Assembly (NCBI RefSeq): GCF_042665075.1
Contig: NZ_JBHTBR010000002.1
Coordinates: 1,288,987-1,328,986 of the forward strand
DNA: 40,000 nucleotides
From: Hirschia litorea
Lineage (GTDB): Bacteria > Pseudomonadota > Alphaproteobacteria > Caulobacterales > Hyphomonadaceae
Direction of reading: 5' to 3'
Each line of letters starts with the position of its first letter. Within the stretch, counting starts at the first letter, position 1. The notes below the pieces were generated by a model. That model was not told the origin of the DNA, searched no databases, and worked only from the letters and a program-made list of their open reading frames with translations. The position numbers and the translations under genes are program-made. Of this stretch, positions 12,490 to 29,189 are shown piece by piece.

Positions 12490-13080
12490 ACCTCATGGGG
12501 CGGCTCGCGACCGATCGTGCTGGGGTGGGATGGTGTACCCTTCAAACCACATGGCGCATTCGGAGTGTCTATGCAGGTGTTGGGCGTGCTCTAGGGGATA
12601 TCCTTTGCGGGGGTGGCTGTCGTCATCCTTAGCGGGCTTTGGGGGCAGGAACCCCTTATAAGAAGGAACCTCACCACGGTAAATCACCATGCGAGGCACG
12701 CAGATTTGCGGCCTACTTACCTGCTGGGGCCCGTGTGCAGATCGGGTCTTGGCTATCACTGCCAAAAATCTGTGTGCCTCGCGCCCTGATTTTACGAAGA
12801 ATGCTTATACTCTCGCATCAGAAATGGTGGCGGAGGTTTTGGTGTATCCGGCCCTCAGGCCGACGAGCAAAGCGAAGGCACAGGTGCGCCAATTTCTAAT
12901 TGGCAATCGCACCGAGCATAGACAGTCAAATGGCGGAGGTTTTGGTATATGTGACGCTCATATCGCCGGCATATCTACAGCGAATCTAAACGCTGACATC
13001 TCTTGCCCAAGACTGCGCCATGGCCTACCAGCAAGAAAGACGACTCACTGAAAAGTCGCAGAGAATACGGATCAAAAGCT
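12490..13080 (+). other. GC-rich segment containing several helices and lacking a credible ORF; candidate structured RNA or decayed element
   Basis: It lies in an 825-bp gap between divergent genes. A 17-bp helix pairs 12691-12707 with 12766-12782, and its single non-Watson-Crick pair is G-T only on the plus strand. Local hairpins occur at 12849-12862 and 12883-12913. The 16-mer TGGCGGAGGTTTTGGT occurs twice (12828, 12931). The ORFs here overlap each other and look non-protein-like. Confidence 0.25.
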
Positions 13081-14308: not shown

Positions 14309-14322
14309 CCCGCGAAGGCGGG
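14309..14322. repeat. Left copy of 14-bp direct repeat (putative target-site duplication) CCCGCGAAGGCGGG
   Basis: The exact 14-mer recurs at 28208-28221 in the same orientation, and each copy abuts a terminal inverted repeat. Confidence 0.8.
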
Positions 14323-14345
14323 GGGGTATAGTGATATCCAGAATT
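14323..14345. repeat. Left terminal inverted repeat (GGGGTATAGTGATATCCAGAATT)
   Basis: The 17-bp core GGGGTATAGTGATATCC (14323-14339) is the perfect reverse complement of 28190-28206. The match continues with one indel. Confidence 0.8.
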
Positions 14346-14463
14346 AAATAAATCTGCCCATTTCACCAAAGACAACTGGCGTTCTTAAAATCAAATGACT
14401 TTTGCTATATTACAACGTATGGGTGTTTTAGCTATAAGTGAAAATTAGATTCGGGATTTGGGT

Positions 14464-15480
14464 ATGGGTATCGAAGATTATGTAGCTAGCACGAAATTTG
14501 GTATTGATAACTTGAGTTTTCTATTTGGTGCTGGGACATCATTTGAAGCTGGGTATCCACTCATATCTGGGTTGACAGTCTCCGTATTAGGCGGACTTTC
14601 ACCTGATGAAAACAATAATCTATCAGAAGTATTCACAGCTCTTAAAATTGATGTGAACACCCTAAACATAGAAGAGATTTCTGATTGTGTTCTTAAACAT
14701 TACATTGAAAGTCAGGATATACGGTTTTTTTATTTAATGGATAGAATAAGATCATTGATAAGCGAGGTTATTCTAGATGTTTCAAATCCAAACTTGTCCA
14801 ATCATATATCATTTTTTAATTCTCTAAAACGTAGAGCCTTTAATCGCTCCACTGTTGTCTGGATTTTTACGACGAACTACGATTTGCTCTTTGAAGAAGC
14901 TGCCGCACTATCTGGTGTAAACCTGATAAATGGGTTCACAGGGGTATCGACTAGATTTTATTCAGAAGATGAATTTCATGCTGTGCGAGGTACAAGAAGT
15001 GGTAGTCGTTTTGTAGAAACTCCTGCATTAACTGTAAGGTTAGTTAAACTTCATGGATCAGTTTCATGGTATAAGAATGAAACTAATGTTTTTGAATGTC
15101 ATCCTCAACAAATTCCCCATGACAAGCCACGGTGCATGGTTTTGCCTAGACGCAAGAAAGTCATTGAGACTTTAGATACTCCATATCAGCGACTTTTTCG
15201 AATTTCTAGCGAATTTTTGGGAAGCCAGTGCGTGAATTTAATCGCATCGGGATTTAGTTTTTGTGATGACCATATAAATGATACTCTGATCACCTCCAAG
15301 ATAAACAACGGCAAAATTATTCTGGCTAACTTCTGTGAAGTTGAACCTCCAGAATTGACTGACCTCAGATCAAGACCAAATGTCAGTCATATTACTAAAG
15401 ATAAGCTTATCAATGGTGGGATAGAAACAGCGGGTGCAACCGACTTTTGGAAATTCAGCGAATTTGTAAAACTTTTTTAG
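14464..15480 (+). CDS. SIR2-family (SIR2_2-type) NAD+-binding/NADase protein, partner of HerA
   Basis: Motifs LSFLFGAGTS, IFTTNYDLLFE and VKLHGSVSW are typical of defence-type SIR2 proteins. The gene lies immediately upstream of a HerA-like ATPase. The ORF opens at a TTG at 14458, and the first ATG is at 14464. Confidence 0.8.
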   Translation: MGIEDYVASTKFGIDNLSFLFGAGTSFEAGYPLISGLTVSVLGGLSPDENNNLSEVFTALKIDVNTLNIEEISDCVLKHYIESQDIRFFYLMDRIRSLISEVILDVSNPNLSNHISFFNSLKRRAFNRSTVVWIFTTNYDLLFEEAAALSGVNLINGFTGVSTRFYSEDEFHAVRGTRSGSRFVETPALTVRLVKLHGSVSWYKNETNVFECHPQQIPHDKPRCMVLPRRKKVIETLDTPYQRLFRISSEFLGSQCVNLIASGFSFCDDHINDTLITSKINNGKIILANFCEVEPPELTDLRSRPNVSHITKDKLINGGIETAGATDFWKFSEFVKLF

Positions 15481-15494
15481 GGGGAAGTAAAATT

Positions 15495-17189
15495 ATGGCT
15501 TATCAAATTGGAAAAGTCATTCAGGTCAAAGGCGATCAGATTCATATAGAACTAATTGACCATGATTCTTCTAAACCAATCGGTGTTCCAGAAACTATGG
15601 CGGTAGCAGTACCGACTGATGATGGACCAGAAACTCTACTGATCGGGCAACCTGGCTCGTTTATAGAATTATCCTTACCAAATGGAAGATTGCTGTGCTT
15701 AGTCACAGAAATACAAATGAAGCAGGTTAATATTCCTATCTCAGCAGAAAAATCAGCCATGTTGGAAGGTGAGCTTTTACTAGATAGGGCTGCCAGAATT
15801 CTTGTATCAATTCCTGTGGGAACATTTAATTCAAAGAGCGAATTTGAAAGAGGAACGAACTCCCTTCCAACGGTAAATGCTCCTGCCTTTGCTGTATTAC
15901 CTTCCACAATTGACCGTATTTATGCGAGTTTCGCTGAGGGAGACTTTTCTCTAGGAAAGCTTTCTTTGTTTCCAGAACAAGAAGCCAAAATGAATCTGGA
16001 TGCTTTCCTTGGCAGACATGCAGCCATACTAGGACAAACAGGAGGTGGAAAGTCATGGACCGTAGCGTCTATTTTGCAGAAAATATCTAAATTTCCTCAG
16101 TCTACGGTACTACTTTTAGATCTTCATGGGGAATATACGAACGCCTTTGGTGAAGAAGCTGAAGTAATCGCAGCTAATGAAATAGAAATGCCCTATTGGC
16201 TAATGAACTCTGAAGAGTTGTTGGGTCTGATGATTGATCGAGCTGAAAGTAGCGCGCCCAATCAAAATGCTAAATTCAAAGAATTACTTCAGGAAGCCAA
16301 AGAGAGTAATGTAGAAAATAAAAAATTGGGGTTGGAAAAGATTACAATTGATACTCCGGTGTTTTTTGATCTTAAGTCTATCATCGATGAATTCAGAAAG
16401 TTGGATGTAGAAATGGTCGCGGGTAAAACAAAGCCTGTTAAAGGACCGCTCCATGGGGATTTTACTCGACTATTAATGCGTTTAGAATCTCGTCTAAATG
16501 ATCGTCGTTATGATTTAATTTTTAAACCCAAGACCTACAACACTAGCGCATCGATGAATGATCTATTTCGTAAAATTTTGGGTGAGCAGGAAGATGCTGC
16601 AAAAAAAATTGTTGTGTTAGATATGAGTCCGGTCCCATTTGACGTTCGGGGGTCTATAATTTCACTAGTGCTCAGATGCCTTTTTGATTTTTCATATTGG
16701 TATAGTCGAGTAAATGAGTCTCGGTATCCCATTTCCATCTTTGCTGATGAAGCTCACATATATTTAAGCGACAAATCTAGTGATAGTGCACCACGAGAAA
16801 GTGCAGAGCGAATTGCTAAAGAAGGACGGAAATATGGCCTAAGTTTAACGGTTATTAGTCAGCGTCCGAGAGAGTTATCTTCTACAATCTTATCCCAATG
16901 CGGAAGTTTTCTTTGTTTGAGAATCTCAAATCCAGATGATCAATCTTATGTTCGTAATCTACTGCCCGATTCTGTTAGAGGTATTACCTCTATGTTTTCT
17001 TCATTAACACGTGGAGAGGCTATTTTGATAGGAGATTCAATGATGATGCCTACGAGAATCAAGGTTGATAAACCTAATCCTACACCAAATAGTAACGATG
17101 CTTCATTTGTCGATACTTGGTCAAAGGAAAGAGACGTTTTGGATGTTGAAAAAGTATTGCAGGCGTGGAGAAATCAAAAAATTGTTTAA
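15495..17189 (+). CDS. HerA-like (DUF87/FtsK-HerA superfamily) hexameric ATPase of a SIR2-HerA pair
   Basis: Walker A GQTGGGKSWT, Walker B-like IFADEAHIY and the ISQRPRELSSTILSQCGSFLCLRISNPDD block are present. The ATG at 15495 is preceded by GGGGGAAG. Confidence 0.85.
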   Translation: MAYQIGKVIQVKGDQIHIELIDHDSSKPIGVPETMAVAVPTDDGPETLLIGQPGSFIELSLPNGRLLCLVTEIQMKQVNIPISAEKSAMLEGELLLDRAARILVSIPVGTFNSKSEFERGTNSLPTVNAPAFAVLPSTIDRIYASFAEGDFSLGKLSLFPEQEAKMNLDAFLGRHAAILGQTGGGKSWTVASILQKISKFPQSTVLLLDLHGEYTNAFGEEAEVIAANEIEMPYWLMNSEELLGLMIDRAESSAPNQNAKFKELLQEAKESNVENKKLGLEKITIDTPVFFDLKSIIDEFRKLDVEMVAGKTKPVKGPLHGDFTRLLMRLESRLNDRRYDLIFKPKTYNTSASMNDLFRKILGEQEDAAKKIVVLDMSPVPFDVRGSIISLVLRCLFDFSYWYSRVNESRYPISIFADEAHIYLSDKSSDSAPRESAERIAKEGRKYGLSLTVISQRPRELSSTILSQCGSFLCLRISNPDDQSYVRNLLPDSVRGITSMFSSLTRGEAILIGDSMMMPTRIKVDKPNPTPNSNDASFVDTWSKERDVLDVEKVLQAWRNQKIV

Positions 17190-17201
17190 CGATCAGTCAA
17201 T

Positions 17202-18359
17202 TCAGATACTCCAATTGATCAATTGGGCTAATCGCCTAACCAACTCTGGATTTAACCTGCATACACCGTCTGATTGAATATCAAAATCAGCTCCGGTGAA
17301 AGTCTCTTCTTGAACTAGCTTCAATACAACCCGATCTACAACGGGCCGCATAGGTTCCATAATATCAAGTGCAAAAGATGGCCTTGGTGGTCCTGTTCGT
17401 CCCCTTGAGCGGGTATGAATTATACCCAGCATTGGATCAAAACCAGTTGCGATAGCCTGAAGCTGCATTTGTCCAAGAAGCATTGTGTAGACATAGTTCA
17501 ACATTGCATTGACAGGATGTGTGGCAAATACGTTTTCGGCTTTCCCTTCTCTGAAAAGAGAGGTGCGCGATTTAAAAACAAGCCAGTCGTCAGGAATGGG
17601 ATATTGCTTCGTTGATTTCCACTTTAAATCAATTGACTGCCAAGCTCTGAAATAAGCACTCGCCGCTTGGGCTTCGATTGAAGTTAGCTCTTTCAATTGA
17701 CTATGAGTACCGGTCTTCAATTGCTCAACGAATGCAGGTATTTTTCTTAAAGCTGAATCTCTAGCTTTCGACGTTGGCAAATGAGACTCAAGAGTTTCTA
17801 CAGCGTTATTTAATTTATCTATCATCAAAGGCAGAGCGAAAGATATTTGCTTTGCTTCATCCTTTCTAGCTGCTAATTGCCATTCAAATTTTTCTGGATC
17901 AGCGGATAAACCGCCTGATGTAATTAAAGAAAAGAATTGGCCGTTCCATTTAATTCTAATTAGCGGGATGTTTTGTTCAGTTAGCCAATCCAAGGCATCG
18001 AGTGTAATTGTCCCGTGTCCATCCAAAATTATAATTCTTTTAGGACGATCTAATTCACCCTTAAAATAAGATAATTCTCTATTTTTATTTGGGTAATGCG
18101 TATTACCATCTTTTACAATTAAACGAGCTTTATCGACTTTTAGCGATAAGCCATGGCCCGTTAAAATTAAAGGCTGGTTTTCACGTTCACGGCGCTTTCT
18201 AATTGGTAAAAATGATTGGTATTTGTCTAACCAATAATTGCAGCGATTAGGCCATTCGTGAGAAATGTTATCAGTATTTAAATCCAATTTATTCAATCTA
18301 ATTGTGTCCTTAAGCAGCCAATCAAAACGAATAAGAAATGTCCGATTTAAACACATCAA
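17202..18359 (-). CDS. cas1: Cas1-family integrase (casposase-like, stand-alone)
   Basis: The N-terminal beta domain reads LILTGHGLSLKVDKARLIVKDG..IILDGHGTITLDALDWL..IPLIRIKWNG. The catalytic-domain motifs IEAQAASAYF (Glu), NAMLNYVYT, GIIHTRSRGR (His) and SFALDIMEPMRP (Asp/Glu) are all present. Confidence 0.85.
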   Translation of the reverse strand: MMCLNRTFLIRFDWLLKDTIRLNKLDLNTDNISHEWPNRCNYWLDKYQSFLPIRKRRERENQPLILTGHGLSLKVDKARLIVKDGNTHYPNKNRELSYFKGELDRPKRIIILDGHGTITLDALDWLTEQNIPLIRIKWNGQFFSLITSGGLSADPEKFEWQLAARKDEAKQISFALPLMIDKLNNAVETLESHLPTSKARDSALRKIPAFVEQLKTGTHSQLKELTSIEAQAASAYFRAWQSIDLKWKSTKQYPIPDDWLVFKSRTSLFREGKAENVFATHPVNAMLNYVYTMLLGQMQLQAIATGFDPMLGIIHTRSRGRTGPPRPSFALDIMEPMRPVVDRVVLKLVQEETFTGADFDIQSDGVCRLNPELVRRLAQLINWSI

Positions 18360-19033
18360 ATACTATCACTTATGAATTGATTTCACTAGAACATTCTTGG
18401 GAAGATTATTCCGATTTAGGTATAGATATTTACAATTATAGAAATGAATTAAAACGCTTACGTCACGACAATGGACAAGAAACTAGAGAAGAATCTGATG
18501 CTAGATTACAAAAACTTTTTCAACGTGAAGAAGGTTTAAAGACTCAGCATTTTGATAGAATTCACAACGGGTATTTTGATGCGTTTGGCAATGATATAGA
18601 TAAAGGGGCGGAAAAAACCAAAATACCGCACGCTATGTTTGATGATAGAATTCGTGATTTCGAAATTAATTGGGATTCAAGCACTTTAAAAGCTCATGGG
18701 AAAACGTTCATAGGTATTGAAGTAAGGCCGAGTGATCTCTTGTTGAGAGAAATATCTGAGAGCAAAGACCAATATTCTCAAACGGCAGCCCACATTGTTT
18801 CAAAACCGAATCCATCTAAACAAGGCAGGCCTTCACGTGGCGAACAGATTATGAAGGCAATTCTTCGTCATCACAATGAAAATAAGGCGTGGTTTGACTT
18901 ACCACCTACGGAACGTCGAATTCAGTATTTTAAATTCATAAAAGAAGTTTATCAAAAATGCCCTAAAACAAGCCAAGGTTTTTCATATAAGACTATTGAA
19001 AAATACGAGAAGATTTTTAAAGAAAGTCTATAA
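18338..19033 (+). CDS. Hypothetical protein (231 aa), element-encoded
   Basis: A long AT-rich ORF divergent from cas1. Its 5' end overlaps the annotated cas1 start by 22 nt. No motif recognised. Confidence 0.45.
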   Translation: MSDLNTSNTITYELISLEHSWEDYSDLGIDIYNYRNELKRLRHDNGQETREESDARLQKLFQREEGLKTQHFDRIHNGYFDAFGNDIDKGAEKTKIPHAMFDDRIRDFEINWDSSTLKAHGKTFIGIEVRPSDLLLREISESKDQYSQTAAHIVSKPNPSKQGRPSRGEQIMKAILRHHNENKAWFDLPPTERRIQYFKFIKEVYQKCPKTSQGFSYKTIEKYEKIFKESL

Positions 19034-19043
19034 AAAACAAGGC

Positions 19044-19108
19044 CTATAAAACCTATTTAAAAAAATCACTTTATAGGTTTTTATCTAACTTGCCCATAGG
19101 TTTTATAG
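19044..19108. promoter_or_regulatory. Cluster of three copies of a 13-bp motif ATAGGTTTT(T)ATAG; putative operator/iteron upstream of the polymerase operon
   Basis: CTATAAAACCTAT (19044-19056) is the exact reverse complement of ATAGGTTTTATAG (19096-19108). A third copy, TATAGGTTTTTAT (19072-19084), lies between them. Confidence 0.4.
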
Positions 19109-19168
19109 AGTTCGTTATCTCGATTGTGAAGCGGTTCCCATTGGTCCGCACATTAATCGAGAAGCAAC

Positions 19169-19747
19169 ATGGCCCGCAAACGCGACTATAAAGCAGAATA
19201 CGAACGCCGCTTAGAACGCGGCCGAAAAAAAGGATTGTCGCGCTCACAAGCGCGCGGCCACCCAAAAAAAGGTGAACCCTTGGCAAGTTCACCTCAAGTC
19301 AAACCCAAATCAGATGAGAAGATAGAAGCCGCTCTTCGACACATGCAATTGGGCATGTCGATGACAACAGCTGCGCGCACTGAGCAACTCTCATCCAAAC
19401 GTCTTAGCCAATTCATACACGCGCACGGTATTGCTAAATGGCAAAACCGCAAATGGATCATGAAGGATAGCAGGCCTCGCCGCGTTCCTCATATCAAAGG
19501 TTCATACGCAACCACCGTAACGGTGCCAGACTTTGCAAACGCAAGTCGTGCAGGCCAATACCATAATGCAGTCGGACGGTTTGTGAACACAGGTGATCTG
19601 TCATTCATCGAGCCTTTTGAGGGTGACAGCATCATCGACACCAAAGGTCGTTCTCACCCCTTTGAAACTGACCCCAACAATCTCTTTCGTTACGCTATGA
19701 AAGATGAACCCCCATTCCATGAAATTTATCAAATCGTCTCAAACTGA
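19169..19747 (+). CDS. Basic protein with probable helix-turn-helix (192 aa), first gene of the polymerase operon
   Basis: It has an Arg/Lys-rich N-terminus (KRDYKAEYERRLERGRKKGLSRSQARGHP) and an HTH-like stretch (MSMTTAARTEQLSSKRLSQFI). An AAGGAG for the next gene lies 14 nt downstream of its stop. Confidence 0.55.
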   Translation: MARKRDYKAEYERRLERGRKKGLSRSQARGHPKKGEPLASSPQVKPKSDEKIEAALRHMQLGMSMTTAARTEQLSSKRLSQFIHAHGIAKWQNRKWIMKDSRPRRVPHIKGSYATTVTVPDFANASRAGQYHNAVGRFVNTGDLSFIEPFEGDSIIDTKGRSHPFETDPNNLFRYAMKDEPPFHEIYQIVSN

Positions 19748-19761
19748 AAAGGAGTATTCCA

Positions 19762-20139
19762 ATGGACGATATTATTACTGATGCAGACATTAGACATGAA
19801 AATGCGGTTAGCCGCCTCGGAGGCACAAACAAGCAATGCCTTCATTGCGGTGAAGAAGATGCAAGATGTTTAGAACTACATCATCTCGCCGGACAAAAGT
19901 ATCATGATGACGTGGTTCCATTATGCCGAAATTGCCATCGCAAAATATCTGACACTCAATTAGATCACCCTGATGATCTAAATGCAGCAATGCCTGTCAT
20001 GTTTTCAATAGGTCGCTATCTTTTGGGAATAGCAGATTTCCTTTTGATGATTGCTCATCGTCTGCAAGAGTTTGGACAGCAACTTATAGAATGGGCTCAA
20101 GGTTGCGAATTGGTTCCAATTGAGGAGTCGGTTCAATGA
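19762..20139 (+). CDS. HNH endonuclease
   Basis: It has the zinc and HNH signature CLHCGEED..LELHHL..PLCRNCHRKI. Its stop overlaps the polymerase start (ATGA). Confidence 0.8.
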   Translation: MDDIITDADIRHENAVSRLGGTNKQCLHCGEEDARCLELHHLAGQKYHDDVVPLCRNCHRKISDTQLDHPDDLNAAMPVMFSIGRYLLGIADFLLMIAHRLQEFGQQLIEWAQGCELVPIEESVQ

Positions 20140-22877
20140 TCAAGCTAGAACACAAAACAGCTTACGTTCGCGCCTATTCGGAGAAAACTCAAAAGAAGCC
20201 AGTTAGCCAACATAAGAAGCGAAACAATGTTGATACACCGTCTGACTGGTCACTCGTATTTGATTGCGAAACAAACATTGATGCAGCTCAAGCATTACGG
20301 GTGGGCTTTTATCAAGTCCGCAAGTCAGGTGAGCTTAAATCAGAGGGCTTATTTTATGATCCTGACAATGTGTCGAACTCTGATCTTAAAACCATCCAGT
20401 CTTATGCTGCGAACCATAAGCTAAACATTGGAACCGTCCATGAGTTTAGACACAAAGTATTTCTTCGTGTTGGATATGAAGCACGCGCGTCGATTATAGG
20501 GTTTAATCTACCTTTCGATATATCCCGCATTGCTTTGGACTGTGGTCCTGCGAGAGGAAGCCTTAGAGGGGGCTTTACCTTCAAGCTTTCTGAAGATCGC
20601 ACCAATCCACAAGTCAGAGTGAAGCATCTTAGTTCAACAGCCGCGCTCTATGACTTTGCTAAACCTAAAGGACAAGACACGCCACGCGGAATGCGTAAGA
20701 AGGGTTTGAAAGTTGAACCTCATCGAGGTTATTTCATTGACATAAGAACGATTGCTATGGCCCTGACGAGCCGTAAGCATAGTCTAAAGGGCTTGGCTCA
20801 GTTCCTGAAGGTGGAGACGCAAAAACAAGAGACTGAAGAGCATGGCGGCCCTATAACAGAAGCCTATCTTGATTACGCGCGTGCTGATGTTCAAGCGACT
20901 TGGGAATGCTACGTAAAACTCAAAGCACAATATGACAGTCACGGGTTAGAAACACCGCAGCACCGCATTTTGTCTGAGGCTAGTATTGGAAAAGCTTACC
21001 TTAAACAAAAGCAAGTGAAGCCTTTGCTTGAATGTCAGACTGATCTTCATAGAGAAGACATTGGCCCGATTATGAGTGCTTACTTTGGTGGCCGTGCTGA
21101 AGCGCGTATCCGAAGAGAAATTACTCAAGTTCATTATGCTGATTTCAAGAGCATGTATCCAACGGTAAATGCACTAATGGGGCTTAGTCGCTTTCTTATC
21201 GCAGATGGTTATACCCAATCCGATACAACACAAAATACACAAGAATTCTTGAACACTGCTACTCTTGAAGATCTTCAAAGCAAGAGCACTTGGAAACAGC
21301 TTACAACGCTTGTTTGGCTTAAATCTGATGATGACCTTTTACCCTTCCGCTCCAAGTATGGAGATGAGAAAGGCACGCTCACCATTGGGCTAAATCATAT
21401 CTCTTCAGATACAACGCTCTGCTACTCTCTTGCAGATGTATTGGCTTCCAAAATTCTAACAGGTAAGACGCCTCAAATTGAAAAGGCCATAACCTTTAAA
21501 GCTGGTCCAAAACAAGATGACATTCTGCCAATCAATCTATTTGGAAAGCCTGAATATCGCGTTGATCCACTTAATGAGGATGTGTTTGTAAAGTTCGTCA
21601 ATTTACGTGATGAAGCCAAAGCCCGCAAAGACCCGTTACAACAAGCCATTAAGATCATAGCGAATGCAACTTGCTACGGTATCTTCGTTGAGGTCTTAAG
21701 AGATGAAGCGCCTAAACCTGAAACGCTAAACATCTATGGTCCTGATGGTAATGGCTTTGAAACGAGTTCAACAGCTTTAGAAGAGCCTGGAAAATACTTT
21801 AATCCTGTCTTGGCTGTTCTCATAACAAGTGCAGCGCGACTTATGTTAGCTTTGGCAGAACGTCTCACCACAGATCAAGGCTTAGCTTATACATTCTGCG
21901 ATACTGACAGTATTGCGATGACTAAGCCAGATGACATGAGTGACAAAGATTTCTATCAGCGCGCTCAAAGTGTCATTGATTGGTTTGAGCCGCTAAATCC
22001 ATACCAGAAGCAAGGCTCAATTCTTCAAAGTGAAGATGCAAATTACCATGCTGAAACTGGCAAGTTGGAACCTCTTTATTGTTTAGCTATCTCAGCTAAA
22101 CGCTATGCTTTGTTTAATTTGGATGAAGACGAAAAACCAATCATTAGAAAAGCGTCCGCGCATGGTTTAGGCCATTTGATGGAGCCTTATAATGCAAGCA
22201 ATCCTGCACCTTGTATTCCTAAGCCTGTTATCCCCGTTCATGAGATAGGTGTGAAGCATTGGCAGCATGATTTTTGGTATGTGATCATCACGTCTTTTCT
22301 TAAAGGTGAACCTAACAAAATACCGCGTGATTTCCATCCTGCTTTAGCAAAGCCAGCCCTTAGTCGTTATGGAGCGACTAGCCCTGCAATGCTTTCTTGG
22401 ATGAAACATTTTAACGAGGGTAAGACATACGCTCAAAGTGTGAAGCCGTTTAACTTCCTTACAGCACCGCTTTTGAGAACTGAATGGTACACGCCTGCAC
22501 AATTTGAAGGTAATATACCTGGAGCCAATCCAATCCGCGGCCGTCCTAACGAAGCGTCTAAACCAAAACCGATAGCTCCTTTTGAACGTGATTGCGATAT
22601 TGCGATAAGTAGGATGTTTGATCGGAAGACAGGTGAAACCGTCTCAAAAGAAGTGCTCAAAACCTATGCTGCAGCGCTTGCATCCTACCATTTCAGTCCT
22701 GAAGACAAGTTTGATAATGGCGGATCGTATGATCACGGACCGACACGCAGGAAACACATAAAAGTAGATGGTCTTCAGCTTATTGGGAAAGAAGCAAACA
22801 AGGTTGGAGAAGCTGGACAGCCTGATCCGGTAGCTACGGTGGTAGTCGAATATTCAGACAGTAACGGAATGACGTAA
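20136..22877 (+). CDS. Family B DNA polymerase with 3'-5' exonuclease domain (casposon-type)
   Basis: Motifs present: ExoI LVFDCETN (D43/E45), ExoII GFNLPFDISRI, ExoIII YARADVQATWECY, motif A ADFKSMYPTV (D336), motif B KIIANATCYGIF, motif C FCDTDSIAM (D589/D591, nt 21900-21908) and KxY as AKRYAL. Confidence 0.9.
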   Translation: MIKLEHKTAYVRAYSEKTQKKPVSQHKKRNNVDTPSDWSLVFDCETNIDAAQALRVGFYQVRKSGELKSEGLFYDPDNVSNSDLKTIQSYAANHKLNIGTVHEFRHKVFLRVGYEARASIIGFNLPFDISRIALDCGPARGSLRGGFTFKLSEDRTNPQVRVKHLSSTAALYDFAKPKGQDTPRGMRKKGLKVEPHRGYFIDIRTIAMALTSRKHSLKGLAQFLKVETQKQETEEHGGPITEAYLDYARADVQATWECYVKLKAQYDSHGLETPQHRILSEASIGKAYLKQKQVKPLLECQTDLHREDIGPIMSAYFGGRAEARIRREITQVHYADFKSMYPTVNALMGLSRFLIADGYTQSDTTQNTQEFLNTATLEDLQSKSTWKQLTTLVWLKSDDDLLPFRSKYGDEKGTLTIGLNHISSDTTLCYSLADVLASKILTGKTPQIEKAITFKAGPKQDDILPINLFGKPEYRVDPLNEDVFVKFVNLRDEAKARKDPLQQAIKIIANATCYGIFVEVLRDEAPKPETLNIYGPDGNGFETSSTALEEPGKYFNPVLAVLITSAARLMLALAERLTTDQGLAYTFCDTDSIAMTKPDDMSDKDFYQRAQSVIDWFEPLNPYQKQGSILQSEDANYHAETGKLEPLYCLAISAKRYALFNLDEDEKPIIRKASAHGLGHLMEPYNASNPAPCIPKPVIPVHEIGVKHWQHDFWYVIITSFLKGEPNKIPRDFHPALAKPALSRYGATSPAMLSWMKHFNEGKTYAQSVKPFNFLTAPLLRTEWYTPAQFEGNIPGANPIRGRPNEASKPKPIAPFERDCDIAISRMFDRKTGETVSKEVLKTYAAALASYHFSPEDKFDNGGSYDHGPTRRKHIKVDGLQLIGKEANKVGEAGQPDPVATVVVEYSDSNGMT

Positions 22878-23461
22878 TGGGTTGGGAACGAATGACTGAA
22901 ACAATTAGAGTTTGTGATTGTGGAGAAGGTACCATTACGTACATCTATGAGATGGATGATTGGAACAGAACTCGGAGTTGGGAAGAATTCCAATGCCTGC
23001 ATTGCAAAGCAGAACATCAAATCATCATCGATAAGCGTCAACGAGATCACTTAAAGCGTGAGGCTCTTCTCAAGGAAGCTCAAAAGTTAGCTACTGATTG
23101 CTATCTTGAAAAGTGGTTGGAACATTACAAAGGCCATTCATCGAAGAGAGTTTGGGAAACGCTAACAGGAGGAAAAGTTTATCCAGCGCTTGGAACATTC
23201 TATAGGCATGTTCGTCGTCGTGGACTGGAAGTGGAACTAAAATTTTGGTTCTCCAACGAACTACAAGAGTCACTGAAAATAATAGATGTCGTTGATCAAG
23301 AGATATCCAAACCTCTTGAAGATCGGAATAGAATTCCCGAATTATTTCGACGCTCATTAATCTCCATCTTGGAATATCCAATCAAAGATCGGGCGGAGCG
23401 GCGATTCGTAGAATGGCGGAGCTTTAATATCGCAGACATCTTCGCCGAGGCGGCCGCGTAG
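22877..23461 (+). CDS. Zinc-ribbon-containing hypothetical protein (194 aa)
   Basis: It has CDC..(N33)..CLHC cysteine pairs at the N-terminus. Its start shares one nucleotide with the polymerase stop (TAATG). The last 105 nt overlap the convergent WD40 gene. Confidence 0.5.
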   Translation: MGWERMTETIRVCDCGEGTITYIYEMDDWNRTRSWEEFQCLHCKAEHQIIIDKRQRDHLKREALLKEAQKLATDCYLEKWLEHYKGHSSKRVWETLTGGKVYPALGTFYRHVRRRGLEVELKFWFSNELQESLKIIDVVDQEISKPLEDRNRIPELFRRSLISILEYPIKDRAERRFVEWRSFNIADIFAEAAA

Positions 23462-26400
23462 GATGGAGGCTTTGTCTATCATGTTTTGGTCTATCAGGCG
23501 GATGTAGGGGGTTTCTTTTCCATTCTTGTCTTGTTCTAAAGAAGCAATTAGATGGGAATTACAAAAGCGATCGAAATCATCTTTTTGCGGTTTGATTAGA
23601 CCTGTCCATGTAATATCCCATATACGGACTGTGTTGTCCCAACTCCACGTGAGGATATGTGTTTCATCCTTACTAAAGACGGCACCACTGACCCAGTTCC
23701 CATGTTGTAATGCGGATCCGACCTGCAGGCCAGTTTGCGTATCCCATATCCGCGCGGAGTTGTCATTACTCCAAGTAAGGATACTTGTTCCATCCCTGTT
23801 AAAGACGGCACCATTGATCTCATCCTCATGCTTTAATGAGGCCCCCACCTGCAGGCCAGTGCGAATATCCCATATCCGCGCTGCATGATCATTGCCCCAT
23901 GTGAGAACGCGCGTTTCACCCTTATTAAAAACAGCACCATTGATCCCATCCTCATGTTTTAATGAGGTCCCTACCTGCAGGCCGGTGTGTGTATCCCATA
24001 TCCGCGCTGCATGATCATCGCCCCATGTGAGGATGAGTGTTTCATCCTCGTTAAAGGAAGCACCATTGATATGATCCTCATGCTTTAGAGCTGGTCCAAT
24101 TTGCTGGCCTGTATATACGCCCCATATCCGCGCTGTGTTGTCCCAACTCCATGTGAGGATGCGTGTTCCATCCTTGCTCAAGACGGCACCATTGATACCA
24201 TCCTCGTGTTTTAGAACTGTTCCAATTTGTTGGCCTGTATATACATCCCATATCCGCGCAGTATTGTCCCAACTCCATGTGATGACGCGTGTTCTATTCT
24301 GGCTAAAGACGACATCATCGGTTTCCCCCACATGCTTCAATGTGAAGGATCCAATCTGCTGGCCGGATTGTACGTCCCATGTTCTCACTGTGTTGTTCCC
24401 ACTCAGTGTGAGAACGCGCGTTTCACCCTTATAAAAAACAGCACCATTGATCCCATCCTCATGTTTTAATGAGGTCCCCACCTGCAGGCCGGTGTGTGTA
24501 TCCCATATCCGCGCTGTATCATCATCGCCCCATGTGAGGATGCGTGTTTCATCCTCGTTAAAGGAAACACCTTTGATCCAATCTTCATGTTTTAGTACGC
24601 GTTCATTTTGTACATTCCATATTCGTACTGTATCGCCCCCACTCAGTGTGAGAATGCGTGTTCCATCCTTGCTAAAGGTGGCACTACTGACCCAATCCTC
24701 ATGTTTTAGAGTTGGTCCAATTTGCTTACCGGTTTGTGCGTCCCATATTCGTGCTGTATCATCATCGCCCCATGTGAGGATGCGTGTTTCATCCGCGTTT
24801 AAGGAAGCACCATTGATATTATCGTTGTGAATTAAGGCTGGCCAGACCTCTCTCCCTGTTTGAGCATCGAAGCGAAGCGTTGCGTTAATCGTTATTGTAA
24901 ATATATATGTGCCGTCTTTGTTTAAAATGGCACCTTCAACCTTACTAGTATGCTCCATTGTAGGGCCAATTTGCTGGCCTGTTTGTGTGTCCCACAACCG
25001 CGTTGTGTTGTCTCCACTCCATGTGAGGATGCGTGTTCCATCCTTGCTAAAGGTGGCACCACTGACCCAATCCTCGTGTTTTAGAACTGGTCCAATTTGC
25101 TGGCCTGTATATACATCCCATATCCGCGCTGCATCATCATCGCCCCATGTAAGGACGCGCGTTTTACCCTTGTTAAAAACAGCACCTTTGATCTCGTTCT
25201 CATACTGTAGTGCGGGTCCTATATGCTGCCCGGTTTGCACATCGTAGATGCCGGCGGTGCTATCATTTTTCCAGGTGAGTATACGTGTTCCATCCTCACT
25301 AAAAAGGGCGTCATTGACATTTTCCTCATACTGTAACGTGGGACCAATCTGCTGTTTCGTTTGTGTATCCCATACCCGCGCGATGCTATCATTACTCCAA
25401 GTAAGGATACGTGTTTCATCCTCAATAAAGGAGGCCCCAATTATCTGTACCCCCCCACTAAAGAGGGAGTTATTGACATAATCAACGTGTTTTAGGGGGG
25501 AGCCGATCTGGTGCCCGGATTGTGCGTCCCACAACCGCGCTGTGTTGTCCCTATTCCATGTGAGGATGCGTGTTCCATCCTTGCTCAAGACGGCACCATA
25601 CACATGGCCCTCATGCTTGATACTCAATGTATGGTTTGAGAACTTCTGGGCATTTGACCTAAATCGGCTAAAGGCTTCTTTAGATGCTGGAGACAGGAGT
25701 GTATCTTGAGCGCCAAGAATTACAAGTTTGGATGCTCGCAAGTAATCGCCTTCATCTTCATACTGTCCAGCGACACTTGCAGTAATCAGAGATTCTATTC
25801 TTGCATCATTTCTTATTTTCCTGATTGTTTGCCACCCACCCCACAGAAGGCCTAGAAATGCAATAGAAATGGTGGCGAGAGTGAAACGTTGCCAAAAGAT
25901 TCTTTGTTTTTCTTTTTCCTCAGCTTTACGAATTTGCTCTTCTTCTTTGTGTTTAATCGTTTCCTGATGCGTGTGACATGCATTTAGATAGACCTCTCCC
26001 ACCGGTCCGATGAGTGATTTCAGATCTGCACGCTTAAGAAGGTCCAATGCTTGCGTCAATCGTTCGCCACTGTGAACAAGCAGATCGCTCTTGTGTTCTA
26101 TTTCTTGAGTTTGCTGCTTACGCCATAATTTCGCGGCTTGCTGAACCTGATGCAAGTGCTCAAGTTGAAAACGTTCTTCACCTATCCATGCAGAAAGTCC
26201 ATGCCAATGCCGCAGCACGGCTTCATGTGAGACTTCAATACAGCTTTCGGCTTTGACTATTGATTGCACAAGTAAGCGTTCATCTACAAAATGCGCAACC
26301 AGCTTATGTAGATGTATGGGTAAGCTAGAAAGAAAGGATACACGCCGCATAGGGGATGAATTTGCTTCATCAAGTTGGACAAGCCAAGGAATAAAAATCT

Positions 26401-27799
26401 GGCGAGCGAGTCTGTCTAGCTCTGATCGACTTGAAGGAAGGTCAGGGTCTGCTTCTGCTCGTTTAAATACAGCTTCAACCGCTATATTAATAGCTCCATC
26501 CAGGCCGCCAAGTCCTTCATTATATTTGATAAGTTCCAGAAGATTATTATCCACATATTCTTCAGTCAGTCTCTCAAGCGTGAAGGCCAATAAAGGCAGA
26601 GCATCAGCCGTATCAAGATCTTTTATAAGCTTTTCAGTAAGTGCCGGTTCAATCTTTAATGGTTTTTTTGAAAGCCCCGCGGGTCCTTCAATCACTTCTT
26701 TGAAGGCTTGAGGTGGAAGTGGAGGAAGATTAAACAACTCTAATTGACGTGCCAGATGTTCATGTTTCTGAAGTAAACTGAGACTATCTGAACGGATAGT
26801 GGCAATGACAACTAGGTTCGTGACCCTTGTAAGGCAATGCGTCAATAAATTTATCGCATCCTTACCTGAATGATTGTCCACTGAGAAAAGCTCTTCAGCC
26901 TGATCTATGGGAAGAACAATTGTGGGAGCACGCAGTGTTTGGGTTTCGCCCGCAGCCTTTGCAAGTCGCTCCAAGTGTCGGACACGCTGAGCTGCTATGT
27001 CATTTAAAGATTTTATACTCCGTTCTATAATTTGATTTGATCCTGCTTCCTCTATATTGACAGAGATTGCCTTTAACACCCCTGTTTCACCCGACATTGC
27101 ATCTTGTCTCGGGCGAAAAATCGGGAGGGTGATGAAATTTTCTGTGTCCCGCTGCAAGCGAGACAATAGTCCCGCTTTTAAAAAACTGGACTTACCGGCT
27201 CCGGAAGCCGCAGCTATGGTCAAAATACGCCTCGGTAATCCGCCCCGCATTTGACGTAATTTATCTAAACCCGCTATGATATGCGAATCCCGACCAAAAT
27301 ATATAGCCGCATCTTGCTGTTCAAGTGACCGCAAGCCGCGATAAGGCTTGCGGTCAGGCTCATTTTCCGGAGGCCACATGAAGTGTTTTGGTGATATCTG
27401 CGCTCGTGTGAGCCCGAGCCTCAAATTTTCCAATCCGCTTTCACGGGCATTTAAGGTGGAAATATCTGCAAATTGAATGGAAGCAACAAAATCAGGAATA
27501 GAGGTCGCGAGCGGTTTGATAATGACAGGAAAAATAGGTTTTCCTGATGATTCAGCATGATTGAATTCACGGAGGCATTCGGGTGAACCAATCCAGTTAT
27601 CAGATAGACACACTACCACAGCCTGACAATTATGTCCTACAAAATTGAGACGCTCACGCCATCTATCCCCAGAAACAAATTCGGAAAGATCGATAAAGAT
27701 TTGGGAAGGAGCCCACCCGCCAGATTCAATCAGCCAGTGTCTAAGTGCTTTGGCCTCCGAATTGTCTTCATTCGAATGACTAATAAAAATCTCACTCAT
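23357..27799 (-). CDS. TIR - nSTAND-type P-loop NTPase - transmembrane helix - 16x WD40 repeat protein
   Basis: The TIR-like N-terminus reads IFISHSNEDNSEAKAL. It is followed by the nSTAND1-like hallmark KPYRGLRSLEQQDAAIYFGRD and Walker A AAASGAGKSS (about 27188-27214). One hydrophobic helix follows (FTLATISIAFLGLLWGGW, about 25832-25888), then 16 units of about 42 aa (..DGTRILTWS.DNTARIWD..TGQQIGP.LKHED.I.GA.F). The ATG at 27799 is preceded by GAGGA; a GTG alternative lies at 27817. Confidence 0.9.
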   Translation of the reverse strand: MSEIFISHSNEDNSEAKALRHWLIESGGWAPSQIFIDLSEFVSGDRWRERLNFVGHNCQAVVVCLSDNWIGSPECLREFNHAESSGKPIFPVIIKPLATSIPDFVASIQFADISTLNARESGLENLRLGLTRAQISPKHFMWPPENEPDRKPYRGLRSLEQQDAAIYFGRDSHIIAGLDKLRQMRGGLPRRILTIAAASGAGKSSFLKAGLLSRLQRDTENFITLPIFRPRQDAMSGETGVLKAISVNIEEAGSNQIIERSIKSLNDIAAQRVRHLERLAKAAGETQTLRAPTIVLPIDQAEELFSVDNHSGKDAINLLTHCLTRVTNLVVIATIRSDSLSLLQKHEHLARQLELFNLPPLPPQAFKEVIEGPAGLSKKPLKIEPALTEKLIKDLDTADALPLLAFTLERLTEEYVDNNLLELIKYNEGLGGLDGAINIAVEAVFKRAEADPDLPSSRSELDRLARQIFIPWLVQLDEANSSPMRRVSFLSSLPIHLHKLVAHFVDERLLVQSIVKAESCIEVSHEAVLRHWHGLSAWIGEERFQLEHLHQVQQAAKLWRKQQTQEIEHKSDLLVHSGERLTQALDLLKRADLKSLIGPVGEVYLNACHTHQETIKHKEEEQIRKAEEKEKQRIFWQRFTLATISIAFLGLLWGGWQTIRKIRNDARIESLITASVAGQYEDEGDYLRASKLVILGAQDTLLSPASKEAFSRFRSNAQKFSNHTLSIKHEGHVYGAVLSKDGTRILTWNRDNTARLWDAQSGHQIGSPLKHVDYVNNSLFSGGVQIIGASFIEDETRILTWSNDSIARVWDTQTKQQIGPTLQYEENVNDALFSEDGTRILTWKNDSTAGIYDVQTGQHIGPALQYENEIKGAVFNKGKTRVLTWGDDDAARIWDVYTGQQIGPVLKHEDWVSGATFSKDGTRILTWSGDNTTRLWDTQTGQQIGPTMEHTSKVEGAILNKDGTYIFTITINATLRFDAQTGREVWPALIHNDNINGASLNADETRILTWGDDDTARIWDAQTGKQIGPTLKHEDWVSSATFSKDGTRILTLSGGDTVRIWNVQNERVLKHEDWIKGVSFNEDETRILTWGDDDTARIWDTHTGLQVGTSLKHEDGINGAVFYKGETRVLTLSGNNTVRTWDVQSGQQIGSFTLKHVGETDDVVFSQNRTRVITWSWDNTARIWDVYTGQQIGTVLKHEDGINGAVLSKDGTRILTWSWDNTARIWGVYTGQQIGPALKHEDHINGASFNEDETLILTWGDDHAARIWDTHTGLQVGTSLKHEDGINGAVFNKGETRVLTWGNDHAARIWDIRTGLQVGASLKHEDEINGAVFNRDGTSILTWSNDNSARIWDTQTGLQVGSALQHGNWVSGAVFSKDETHILTWSWDNTVRIWDITWTGLIKPQKDDFDRFCNSHLIASLEQDKNGKETPYIRLIDQNMIDKASILRGRLGEDVCDIKAPPFYESPLRPIFDWIFQDGD
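23606..25625 (-). repeat. Tandem array of about 126-bp coding repeats (16 WD40 units) with high internal DNA identity
   Basis: The periodic recurrence of ..CCCATATCCGCGC.. and CCATGTGAGGATGCGTGT.. is visible by eye. The block 23901-24070 matches 24408-24577 with about 7 mismatches in about 170 bp. Confidence 0.85.
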
Positions 27800-28183
27800 G
27801 ATCGTCCTCACAATCACTTATACTAGCTTTCAGAAGATATCAGGCAAATAATGAAGCGCAAAGTTCAATTATTATGGAGAAAGTGGGGTAAGTTATAAAA
27901 TTAACGTTTGGACATAAAAATAGACCCAATGGAATATGCTTACGAACGGACTAAGGTACAGTTAGCTTTTTTATAATGTACTTCCAATCAGCAAAGCCAT
28001 TAAGCAGTTTGATAATACTTCTTGGGTCTTTCCTGTCAGAGTTTTTAACTATATTTCAAATGTTACCACAGAGGTAAGTGCTCGCAAATGCTGTGCTGCT
28101 CATCAATCCGTTTGAGGTATTTTTATTCCGTGGTGAAAAATAATAAGGTCACCATCAGTATGGGAAGTAGTGTATGACTAATG

Positions 28184-28207
28184 AATTTCGGATATCACTA
28201 TACCCCC
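28184..28207. repeat. Right terminal inverted repeat (AATTTCGGATATCACTATACCCCC)
   Basis: Reverse complement of the left TIR. The core 28190-28206 is a perfect match to 14323-14339. Confidence 0.8.
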
Positions 28208-28221
28208 CCCGCGAAGGCGGG
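28208..28221. repeat. Right copy of 14-bp direct repeat CCCGCGAAGGCGGG
   Basis: Identical to 14309-14322 and directly abuts the right TIR. Confidence 0.8.
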
Positions 28222-28601
28222 AACCCAGCCCAAACAATATAGACGGGCAAAGCCCGCCACATTCAATTGTCTGGATACCAGATCAAGTCTGGGAAAACGA
28301 GCTGAAAGGATATTTAAAAAACAGCAAACGCCGCCCCCGCAACCAAACCAGAGGAAAGCAAATCACTCTCCCAACCGCCTCCCCAACGAAAGTTGGGGTC
28401 CAGCACGGAGGTTCAATTTAAACAGATGGAAAGAATTTATTCCTGATTAGTAGATTTTTATCAAATTAGAACGTATATTAATTATTGTGCTGACGGAGAG
28501 GTAATGTTTGGACTAAAACCCCTCCGTCAGACACGGGCCTCACCTCGTAATGTACTGCTTCCTTCTGGAAGGGAAGCTTGAGGCAACTTTAGAGGGGTAT
28601 C

Positions 28602-28994
28602 TTACTTTGGTTTCCATCGTCCTGTGGAATCATCAAAGCTAATTAGCCCTTCTTTTTTGAATCTTGATAGATGACTACTCAGTGTCCCTATTTTCAGCCC
28701 ATTGATCTGTTTTTCGATAAACTCAAACAACTCAGTCAAACTGTAACCATCAAGGCGTTGAGCCGATTCTTTCGTACTAAGATCTCGAGAAGTATTCAAT
28801 CGCTCTAAAACTTCTCCCAACAAATAAAACTTCAATACATTTCGCTTATTGATAGTGCTGTTGAGTGAGAACAACTGATTTTCTTCAACATGTTCTTTAA
28901 TTTTCTTCAGCTGTATTACGTACCTTTCTAAATCATATATTTCCATCTCAGTAGATCGAATTTCATCTTCTAATTTTTGAAAACTATTCTGCAT
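28602..28994 (-). CDS. Hypothetical protein (130 aa): N-terminal coiled coil plus possible winged-helix C-terminus
   Basis: An AT-rich ORF outside the TIRs. Its composition is unlike the flanking core genes. The C-terminus (LKIGTLSSHLSRFKKEGLISFDD) resembles a wHTH recognition helix and wing. Confidence 0.4.
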   Translation of the reverse strand: MQNSFQKLEDEIRSTEMEIYDLERYVIQLKKIKEHVEENQLFSLNSTINKRNVLKFYLLGEVLERLNTSRDLSTKESAQRLDGYSLTELFEFIEKQINGLKIGTLSSHLSRFKKEGLISFDDSTGRWKPK

Positions 28995-29112
28995 AAGTAT
29001 CTATATAACGCACTAAACGCGCCACTGCAATAGCTATCATTGCAGCAGAACCACACCTTAAAATATGAAAAACTGTTTAAAATCAGCTACATAGAAAAAA
29101 GCTATGAGCGAC

Positions 29113-29146
29113 AATATAATATATGGATTCATCCATATATTATATT
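29113..29146. promoter_or_regulatory. Perfect 34-bp palindrome (16-bp arms, 2-nt spacer) AATATAATATATGGAT-TC-ATCCATATATTATATT
   Basis: The arms 29113-29128 and 29131-29146 are exact reverse complements. The palindrome lies about 120 bp upstream of the 28994 start and about 45 bp downstream of the recQ stop. Confidence 0.4.
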
Positions 29147-29189
29147 GAAATAAATGTCAACTTTTTTGATAAACCTGACGAATTACCCC

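Follow-up and report, generated by a model that had tools for sequence, protein, structure and literature searches.

The window that we have analysed, i.e., the whole stretch of 40,000 nucleotides from Hirschia litorea, contains a cas1 gene together with a DNA polymerase gene and several defence genes (Table 1). The cas1 ORF at 17202–18359 of the minus strand is present in the ORF table, and its longest form encodes 385 aa. Behind its 3′ end lies a SIR2-HerA defence pair, and the ORF table places the cas1 stop 12 nt from the convergent HerA stop (17189), just as the initial annotation had described. On the other side, a block of genes is transcribed divergently, including a family-B DNA polymerase (PolB). 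The motifs of this polymerase are all kept, namely FDCET, NLPFD and YARAD (ExoI–III) and DFKSMYP, KIIANATCYG and FCDTDS (polymerase A, B and C). The PolB has been identified by Pfam and by these motifs, and a phmmer search against the PDB gave no match at E 0.01. The 194-aa protein encoded behind it has no Pfam or NCBIfam family. No tRNA and no CRISPR array were found in the 40-kb window.

Table 1 Features of the cas1-containing element and its target site, in window positions.
Feature	Positions	Strand	Evidence or remark
Target site duplication, left copy, CCCGCGAAGGCGGG	14309–14322		14-mer, hairpin core
Left terminal inverted repeat, tip GGGGTATAGTGATATCC	14323–14350	+	inverted-repeat search
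SIR2 gene, first of the SIR2-HerA defence pair, cargo	14458–15480	+	SIR2_2 E 7.5e-10; PADLOC PDLC04081 E 7e-132
HerA ATPase gene, cargo	15447–17189	+	DUF87/HerA E 7.5e-35; PADLOC PDLC04105 E 6e-172
cas1, predicted casposase, 364 aa from the likely TTG	17202–18296	-	longest ORF extends to 18359
Spacer between the divergent starts of cas1 and the 231-aa gene, 41 bp	18297–18337		
231-aa gene, fast-evolving family, divergent from cas1	18338–19033	+	
192-aa conserved core gene	19169–19747	+	tblastn, no Pfam match
HNH-like nuclease gene, 125 aa	19762–20139	+	Pfam HNH at E 0.036, sub-threshold
Family-B DNA polymerase, 913 aa	20136–22877	+	Pfam DNA_pol_B_2 E 2e-7
194-aa gene, coupled to the polB stop	22877–23461	+	ORF table
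TIR-nSTAND1-WD40 protein, 1486 aa, second cargo gene	23357–27817	-	Pfam TIR_2 E 3.4e-16, nSTAND1 E 3.7e-66, WD40 repeats
Right terminal inverted repeat	28179–28207	-	inverted-repeat search
Target site duplication, right copy, 14 bp	28208–28221		exact direct repeat

All these genes are enclosed by terminal inverted repeats. The top inverted repeat within 12–30 kb pairs 14320–14350 with 28179–28209 (31 nt, 87% complementary). Its 17-nt tip GGGGTATAGTGATATCC is perfect and occurs exactly twice in the genome, both times at an end of the element, which measures 13,885 bp (14323–28207) and is present as a single copy. The 14-mer CCCGCGAAGGCGGG beside the tips likewise has exactly two copies in the 3.49-Mb genome, in direct orientation. 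It is nearly palindromic. Since its GAAG loop faces the same way at both ends, it should be regarded as a direct repeat rather than an extension of the inverted repeats. The left hairpin begins ~15 nt past the stop codon of an HPP-CBS gene (14291), and the insertion is intergenic.

The empty form of this site has been observed in another genome of the same genus. There, the flanks are 95% identical to those in the window, and left and right flank are joined via one orthologous copy of the hairpin. Because this site is uninterrupted and holds a single hairpin, the 13,885-bp stretch must have been inserted, with duplication of 14 bp of its target. Terminal inverted repeats and a target duplication produced by insertion are the defining marks of casposons (PMC4046053). 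Four of the features by which a casposon is recognised have been observed, i.e., a Cas1 with all catalytic residues, a PolB, terminal inverted repeats, and a ~14-bp target duplication whose empty site is found in the related genome. The Cas1 is therefore not an orphan, since it sits inside an element bounded by terminal inverted repeats. Among the 11 element ORFs scanned, four of which have no assigned function, no other integrase or transposase family was detected.

The identity of the Cas1 protein itself is clear. The three stretches previously quoted as Cas1 motifs (IEAQAASAYF, GIIHTRSRGR and ALDIMEPMRP) are all present in its translation. The search with the Pfam Cas1 model, which had been proposed as a check, gives a Cas_Cas1 match at residues 64–380 (E 1.4e-40, 139.7 bits against a cut-off of 22.3), and the generic NCBIfam cas1 model TIGR00287 is passed as well (110 bits, cut-off 71.7). 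Every subtype-specific Cas1 model of NCBIfam, on the other hand, stays far under its cut-off. The AF2 model (mean pLDDT 87.7) is composed of an N-terminal helix, the N-terminal beta domain that had been noted before (43–125), and a helical catalytic domain (134–363) which reaches the C-terminus. Both by sequence and by fold, the best solved match is the casposase 6OPM. In the profile search it scores an E of 8.7e-30, compared with 1e-19 for the top CRISPR Cas1. In the Foldseek search with the model it again comes first (E 1e-19, TM 0.71), and CRISPR Cas1 structures follow, including E. coli Cas1-Cas2 at ~1e-9.

The catalytic residues are E208, H294, D311 and E314 in the numbering of the 364-aa form (add 21 when counting from 18359). 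E208 in IEAQ, H294 in GIIH, and D311 and E314 in LDIME are invariant in alignments of 24 and of 64 homologues. The annotation had staked its claim of an intact active site on the alignment with E141, H208 and D221 of E. coli Cas1. That protein is not reached from this Cas1 by PDB sequence or profile search, and it was taken from K-12 and aligned to the family profile by hhalign. In this alignment the four residues pair with E. coli E141, H208, D218 and D221, i.e., with all three residues named and with D218 in addition. Although hhalign assigns a low probability (34%, E 4e-4), the motifs are in unambiguous register. In addition, HMMER places the motifs on those of A. fulgidus Cas1 and of the M. 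mazei casposase. The Pfam match and the aligned Glu/His/Asp-Glu residues thus bear out a full Cas1 with an intact active site.

The absence of Cas2 and of a CRISPR array, noted before for the window, extends to the whole 3.49-Mb genome (100% complete, 9 contigs, 750 N gaps). This genome encodes one Cas1 only. Genome-wide, nothing scores above the cut-off for Cas2 (PF09827 at best 18.2 bits, PF09707 zero matches), Cas3_HD, RAMP and Cas5 have no matches, and a k-mer scan of the genome reveals no spacer-repeat array, so the CRISPR-Cas locus that might have been using this Cas1 was not found. Two candidates have been discarded. One is a Cas2-like ORF on contig C5, which is sub-threshold, on a different contig and without an adjoining cas1; the other, picked up by the array finder on contig C4, is a tandem repeat of 60 nt that is coding and has no spacers. 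It might still be supposed that a lost CRISPR-Cas system has left the gene behind as an orphan of its adaptation module, as the generic cas1 models are passed. However, the genome is devoid of Cas2, Cas3, Cas5, RAMP and arrays, the subtype-specific models all fall far short, and the gene has casposon synteny, terminal inverted repeats and a target duplication, so that such an origin is extremely improbable. Instead, the residue alignment, the CRISPR-less genome and a casposase as the closest structure support the earlier suggestion of a casposase-like Cas1 in a mobile element.

Relatives of this Cas1 are numerous. The protein search has retrieved at least 733 of them (312–394 aa) among the matches listed, with named proteins from Henriciella marina, Henriciella sp., Hyphomonadaceae and Sneathiella. 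A scan of species-level genomes has found at least 302 stretches with a Cas1 relative, and 80 of these, mostly from Alphaproteobacteria, were examined. Of the 64 loci that extend at least 5 kb upstream of cas1, 62 contain PolB, which invariably lies on the other strand and is accompanied by the 192-aa and HNH genes. In the full set, the 192-aa gene adjoins cas1 in 69 of 80 loci (by tblastn) and the HNH gene is found in 63. Both ends could be located for 29 elements, whose sizes are 7.5–16.4 kb and whose tips read GGGG(G)TATAG... (GGGGTATAG). Of 40 related genomes, 5 encode a Cas1 relative, so that the distribution is patchy. Among sequencing runs, only three, all of metagenome DNA, contain small shares of the region 17000–19800.

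As for published elements, our Cas1 is 52% identical to that of HenMar-C2 of Henriciella marina, 46% to that of Hyphomonas sp. CY54-11-8, and 38% to that of HenMar-C1. Both Henriciella marina and Hyphomonas sp. CY54-11-8 are published hosts of family-3 casposons (PMC4779613). Judged from the identity to these members and from the synteny and tips shared with them, the element should belong to family 3. Overall, cas1 is very probably the casposase (integrase) gene of an intact family-3 (bacterial) casposon at 14323–28207. The element is a self-replicating transposon with its own PolB, of a kind that has been described already, and the gene is an intact and quite typical representative. By analogy with characterised casposases, its product is predicted to act as an integrase.

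It had been remarked that cas1 is not terminal in the element, and indeed the SIR2-HerA cargo stands between its 3′ end and the inverted repeat. What separates the gene from the element end is a slot for variable cargo, here occupied by SIR2-HerA. In related elements, between 109 bp (L049) and more than 6 kb lie between the cas1 stop and the end of the element. Two relatives stand nearest to the window (Cas1 75–76% identical), and they have the same core at other sites, with different genes after cas1, i.e., CTD12/MC6-MC8/DUF2326 genes in one and a gene for a 1115-aa protein in the other.

Alternatively, the element might be a fossil that no longer transposes, its Cas1 being intact by chance or co-opted by the host, e.g., in a defence island. 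There is a single copy, ~60% of the length is defence cargo, and past their tips the inverted repeats are imperfect (87% over 31 nt). The arms diverge after ~17–20 nt, and the C-run and the G-run differ by one base at the two junctions. Since the element is single-copy and shows this divergence and mismatch, its present-day mobility is putative. On the other hand, the target duplication is exact, the 17-nt tips match without error, no core gene is interrupted, and PolB has retained every catalytic motif. Compared with its nearest relative, Cas1 has a dN/dS of ~0.10 (dS being close to saturation), which indicates that it is under purifying selection. With a congener whose 95%-identical flanks still enclose the empty site, and with closest relatives that keep the core and carry different cargo elsewhere, we regard a fossil as improbable and retain the reading of an intact casposon.

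We have also reconsidered where cas1 starts. In its longest form, cas1 overlaps the divergent 231-aa ORF (from 18338) by 22 nt, and this had been taken to mean either a bidirectional promoter inside coding sequence or a mis-called start. The overlap is correct for the longest ORF, but it is apparently not a real one. A public protein collection calls cas1 as 364 aa (P0002), starting at TTG 18296. Homologues begin 13–26 residues before the first conserved Trp, compared with 35 residues for the 385-aa form, and an AAGGA at 18311–18307 precedes the TTG by 10 nt. For L089, the nearest relative whose DNA is available (Cas1 75% identical), the ATG start aligns with a CTT in the window, and the next in-frame start in the window after this position is TTG 18296, six codons downstream. 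According to these sequence comparisons, cas1 is likely translated from TTG 18296, not from 18359, and the protein would then begin with M-N-K-L-D-L. The start of the 231-aa gene coincides with those of its homologues, the N-termini being aligned, so the overlap disappears. Thus, of the two options, the mis-called start is supported. The idea of promoters inside coding sequence survives in part, since only 41 bp separate the divergent start codons here (58 bp in L088, 28 bp in L089), and with spacers of 28–58 bp the promoters should lie partly inside the opposing coding sequences. A consensus scan for promoters and terminators over 17000–19300 gave 7 promoter-like sites compared with 6.8 expected, none of them in 18297–18440.

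As for the duplicated target, the genome has four other sites of the form CCCGC-N3-6-GCGGG. In the relative L088, whose tips are almost identical to those in the window, CCCGCCTACGCGGG is duplicated, i.e., the same 5-bp stem with a different loop. Overall, 18 of the 29 target duplications hold a perfect stem of at least 5 bp, compared with 9% of shuffled duplications and 3.6% of random windows; lengths above ~16 in this 29-element set are too high, since the G-run/C-run at the tips makes the boundary ambiguous. For HenMar-C1, the published values are an inverted repeat of 37 and a target duplication of 1 (PMC4046053, Table S1). When we re-read its ends, we found a 16-nt direct repeat, CTCCCGGATGCGGGAG, with the loop facing the same way at both ends. 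Since the loop keeps one orientation, HenMar-C1 should have a hairpin target duplication as well. The same holds for HenMar-C2, with the hairpin duplication CTCCCGAATCCGGGAG. The words "terminator" and "hairpin" are absent from PMC4779613 and PMC9939771, and a study of 2024 still took its set of 48 casposon sequences from papers of 2014 and 2016 (PMC11551731).

The initial annotation had pointed out that the protein seems to lack the C-terminal HTH of many casposases, and this is real. The chain stops 3–7 residues past the part aligned with the catalytic domain of the M. mazei casposase, while the M. mazei chain extends ~120 residues further. The absence is not anomalous, because it is the published state for family-3 Cas1 of the HenMar-C1 type: the paper defining the family reports no additional domains in HenMar-C1 Cas1 (PMC4046053). 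In fact, a family-3 casposase is normally found without Cas2, without an array and without an additional DNA-binding domain. The members of the clade have in common a segment of ~40 residues ahead of the Cas1 fold, consisting of a helix with conserved Trp/Arg/Trp (W15/R18/W22) followed by R-K-R-R-E (R33-K-R-R-E37).

How the target is recognised may be considered in the light of two characterised enzymes. In the M. mazei casposase, the tetramer clamps a 14-bp target, and removal of the HTH abolished integration (PMC6977970). The family-1 casposase of Ca. Nitrosopumilus koreensis, on the other hand, is HTH-less and integrates site-specifically alone, with a 13-bp target duplication (PMC8464041). 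By analogy with these two enzymes, a dimer of Cas1 dimers would hold the two 3′-OH ends of the element (...TATACCCC-3′) and join them to opposite strands 14 bp apart, flanking the dyad CCCGC-N4-GCGGG, and gap repair would then duplicate the hairpin. The enzyme would act without Cas2 and without a C-terminal HTH; the target may be read by the Cas1 body, the N-terminal helix and the RKRRE patch, possibly with the help of small neighbour proteins.

One such possibility is that the casposase is real and its target binding needs an HTH-type module in trans, supplied by the 231-aa or the 192-aa protein. The inactivity of the HTH-less M. mazei enzyme would favour this, and a small gene nearly always adjoins cas1. 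The 231-aa ORF is a genuine gene, and its family was recovered by iterated profile in 47 of 47 loci with an ORF of at least 190 aa in this slot, and the other 19 loci have instead a co-directional ORF for 300–366 aa immediately upstream of cas1. In HenMar-C1, the latter encodes 366 aa and overlaps the cas1 start, and one member of this group shows a weak MerR-HTH match. Moreover, the AF2 model of the 231-aa protein (pLDDT 89.6) has two domains and ends in a three-helix bundle, and according to this model the three C-terminal helices could be an HTH. The 192-aa protein is probably the "conserved HTH protein" of the casposon literature. Against this, neither protein has a Pfam, NCBIfam or PADLOC family, no HTH was detected in the 192-aa protein, and the fold search with the 231-aa model returned rows only at E ≥ 0.17, for which reason a CRP/GlxR-like fold has been rejected. 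In addition, the HTH-less family-1 casposase is site-specific by itself. We regard a module in trans as less likely than not.

We may also speculate that the N-terminal segment lets this HTH-less casposase read the dyad-symmetric GC hairpin CCCGC-N4-GCGGG by itself. This idea is rather doubtful at present. If true, the enzyme would provide a minimal and testable bacterial model for palindrome duplication by a Cas1, the step by which a casposon target site has been proposed to have given rise to the palindromic repeats of CRISPR.

For the gene itself, the outcome is that an orphan-looking Cas1 has been explained, its start has been corrected, and the absence of the HTH has turned out to be the norm of the clade. 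Beyond this gene, the value is limited yet genuine. Relatives have been found in species-level genomes, on at least 302 stretches. Because the 14-bp target and the ends are defined and an empty site exists in nature, the locus offers a ready substrate set for a first integration assay of family 3, in which the element end would be ...GGATATCACTATACCCC-3′ and the target TTTCCCGCGAAGGCGGGAACCC.

Compared with known systems, the element is closest to the family-3 casposons HenMar-C1 and HenMar-C2 of H. marina DSM 19595 and that of Hyphomonas CY54-11-8, whose Cas1 is likewise without added domains (PMC4046053; PMC4779613). In these elements, cas1 is divergent from a block of HTH-protein, HNH and PolB genes, to which the 192-aa gene, the HNH-like gene and polB would correspond here. 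The insertion is intergenic in both cases, and their tips, GGGG(T)ATA(G/A)G, match those in the window. HenMar-C1 Cas1 also shares the N-terminal DEW..R..YW and the basic K/R stretch with our protein. What differs is the cargo, SIR2-HerA and TIR-STAND-WD40 in our case, and the host site.

The M. mazei family-2 casposase (6OPM) has the same Glu/His/Glu site (E162/H232/E247 there; PMC6977970), its target is also 14 bp long, and its ends also finish with ...CCC-3′ (TATATCCC there, TATACCCC here). However, it possesses an essential C-terminal HTH of roughly 90–120 residues that is absent here, our enzyme has the extra N-terminal segment of ~40 residues, and the identity between the two is only ~23%. 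The N. koreensis enzyme, which we set beside ours by its description, is likewise without an HTH (~350 aa) and provides the functional precedent for a minimal casposase, but it belongs to family 1, has a protein-primed PolB as partner, comes from an archaeal host and targets the aEF-2 gene. Finally, CRISPR Cas1 (E. coli K-12 YgbT; A. fulgidus 4N06) has the same fold and the same catalytic residues as the protein studied here. It acts, however, as a Cas1-Cas2 complex on the leader-repeat, whereas our Cas1 has neither Cas2 nor array and is encoded within an element bounded by terminal inverted repeats.

The casposon core diverges more slowly than its cargo is swapped. In the closest full relative (L088), Cas1 is 76% identical to that of the window and the TIR tips are near-identical; the slot behind cas1 is filled there by CTD12, MC6/MC8 and DUF2326 genes, and in the window by SIR2-HerA. 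In the window, cas1 and herA are convergent, with stop codons separated by only 12 nt. As this spacing is too tight for a terminator, the two transcripts should overlap, unless termination occurs within the opposing gene.

On the other side of cas1, we have found that the 231-aa family is replaced in 19 related casposons by an unrelated ORF of 300-366 aa, which lies directly upstream of cas1 and overlaps its start in HenMar-C1, a published family-3 casposon of Henriciella marina. No Pfam family was found for these ORFs, the sole match being one weak MerR-HTH.

Among the named relatives of Cas1, the nearest one, at 75% identity, lies on a 3-kb contig (CAYGPY010000335.1) binned as Vampirovibrionales. 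Since the remaining close Cas1 relatives are all alphaproteobacterial, this assignment is probably a binning error. In the own genome, an ORF of ~92 aa (MAVFLISYDL...) matches the Cas2 family PF09827 below threshold (18.2 bits vs a cut-off of 23.8), on a different contig from that of the genome's only cas1.

The HPP-CBS/recQ locus, where the casposon is inserted, looks like a variable hot spot. In the same-genus genome G002, the casposon is missing from this interval, and another insert, of 1.2 kb and with a 350-aa ORF, takes its place. In G001, which has the empty site (L085), the match to the window right flank ends 43 bp beyond the hairpin, and the sequence past that break resembles a stretch from the other side of the window casposon. 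The stretch with the 130-aa ORF is thus absent or rearranged in G001.

Coordinates of the features compared
Feature	Coordinates	Source	Remark
Cargo genes behind cas1	L088:7614-10592	closest full relative	
Gap between cas1 and herA stops	17190-17201	window	
ORF upstream of cas1, 300-366 aa	L033:9048-9986	Hyphomonas sp. CY54-11-8	co-directional with cas1
ORF upstream of cas1, 300-366 aa	L025:8883-9863	relative	co-directional with cas1
ORF upstream of cas1, 300-366 aa	L092:2616-3716	relative	co-directional with cas1
ORF upstream of cas1, 300-366 aa		16 other loci	co-directional with cas1
Nearest named Cas1 relative	L003	CAYGPY010000335.1	
Cas2-like ORF match	L002:1501-1695 (contig C5:307850-308044)	own genome	PF09827, sub-threshold
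Insert in HPP-CBS/recQ interval	L086:2644-3848	G002	
Right flank compared with G001 (L085)	28253-29189	window	
Sequence resembled past the break	12846-12932	window	
130-aa ORF	28602-28994	window	
HenMar-C1	L093 (contig positions 1654265..1670522)	H. marina contig	
HenMar-C2	L090:737-17340	H. marina	
HenMar-C2 polymerase ORFs	L090:5224-7951	H. marina	

As to the published elements, the table entry for HenMar-C1 gives a TIR of 37 and a TSD of 1 (PMC4046053). In our reading of the element, the 16-nt CTCCCGGATGCGGGAG stands at both of its ends in the same loop orientation. That is, this repeat is a hairpin TSD, and it seems to have been tallied within the published TIR. The polymerase of HenMar-C2, the second published element, is called as two ORFs (608 aa and 302 aa), so that this copy may be broken. 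HenMar-C2 likewise carries a hairpin TSD, with CTCCCGAATCCGGGAG at both ends.
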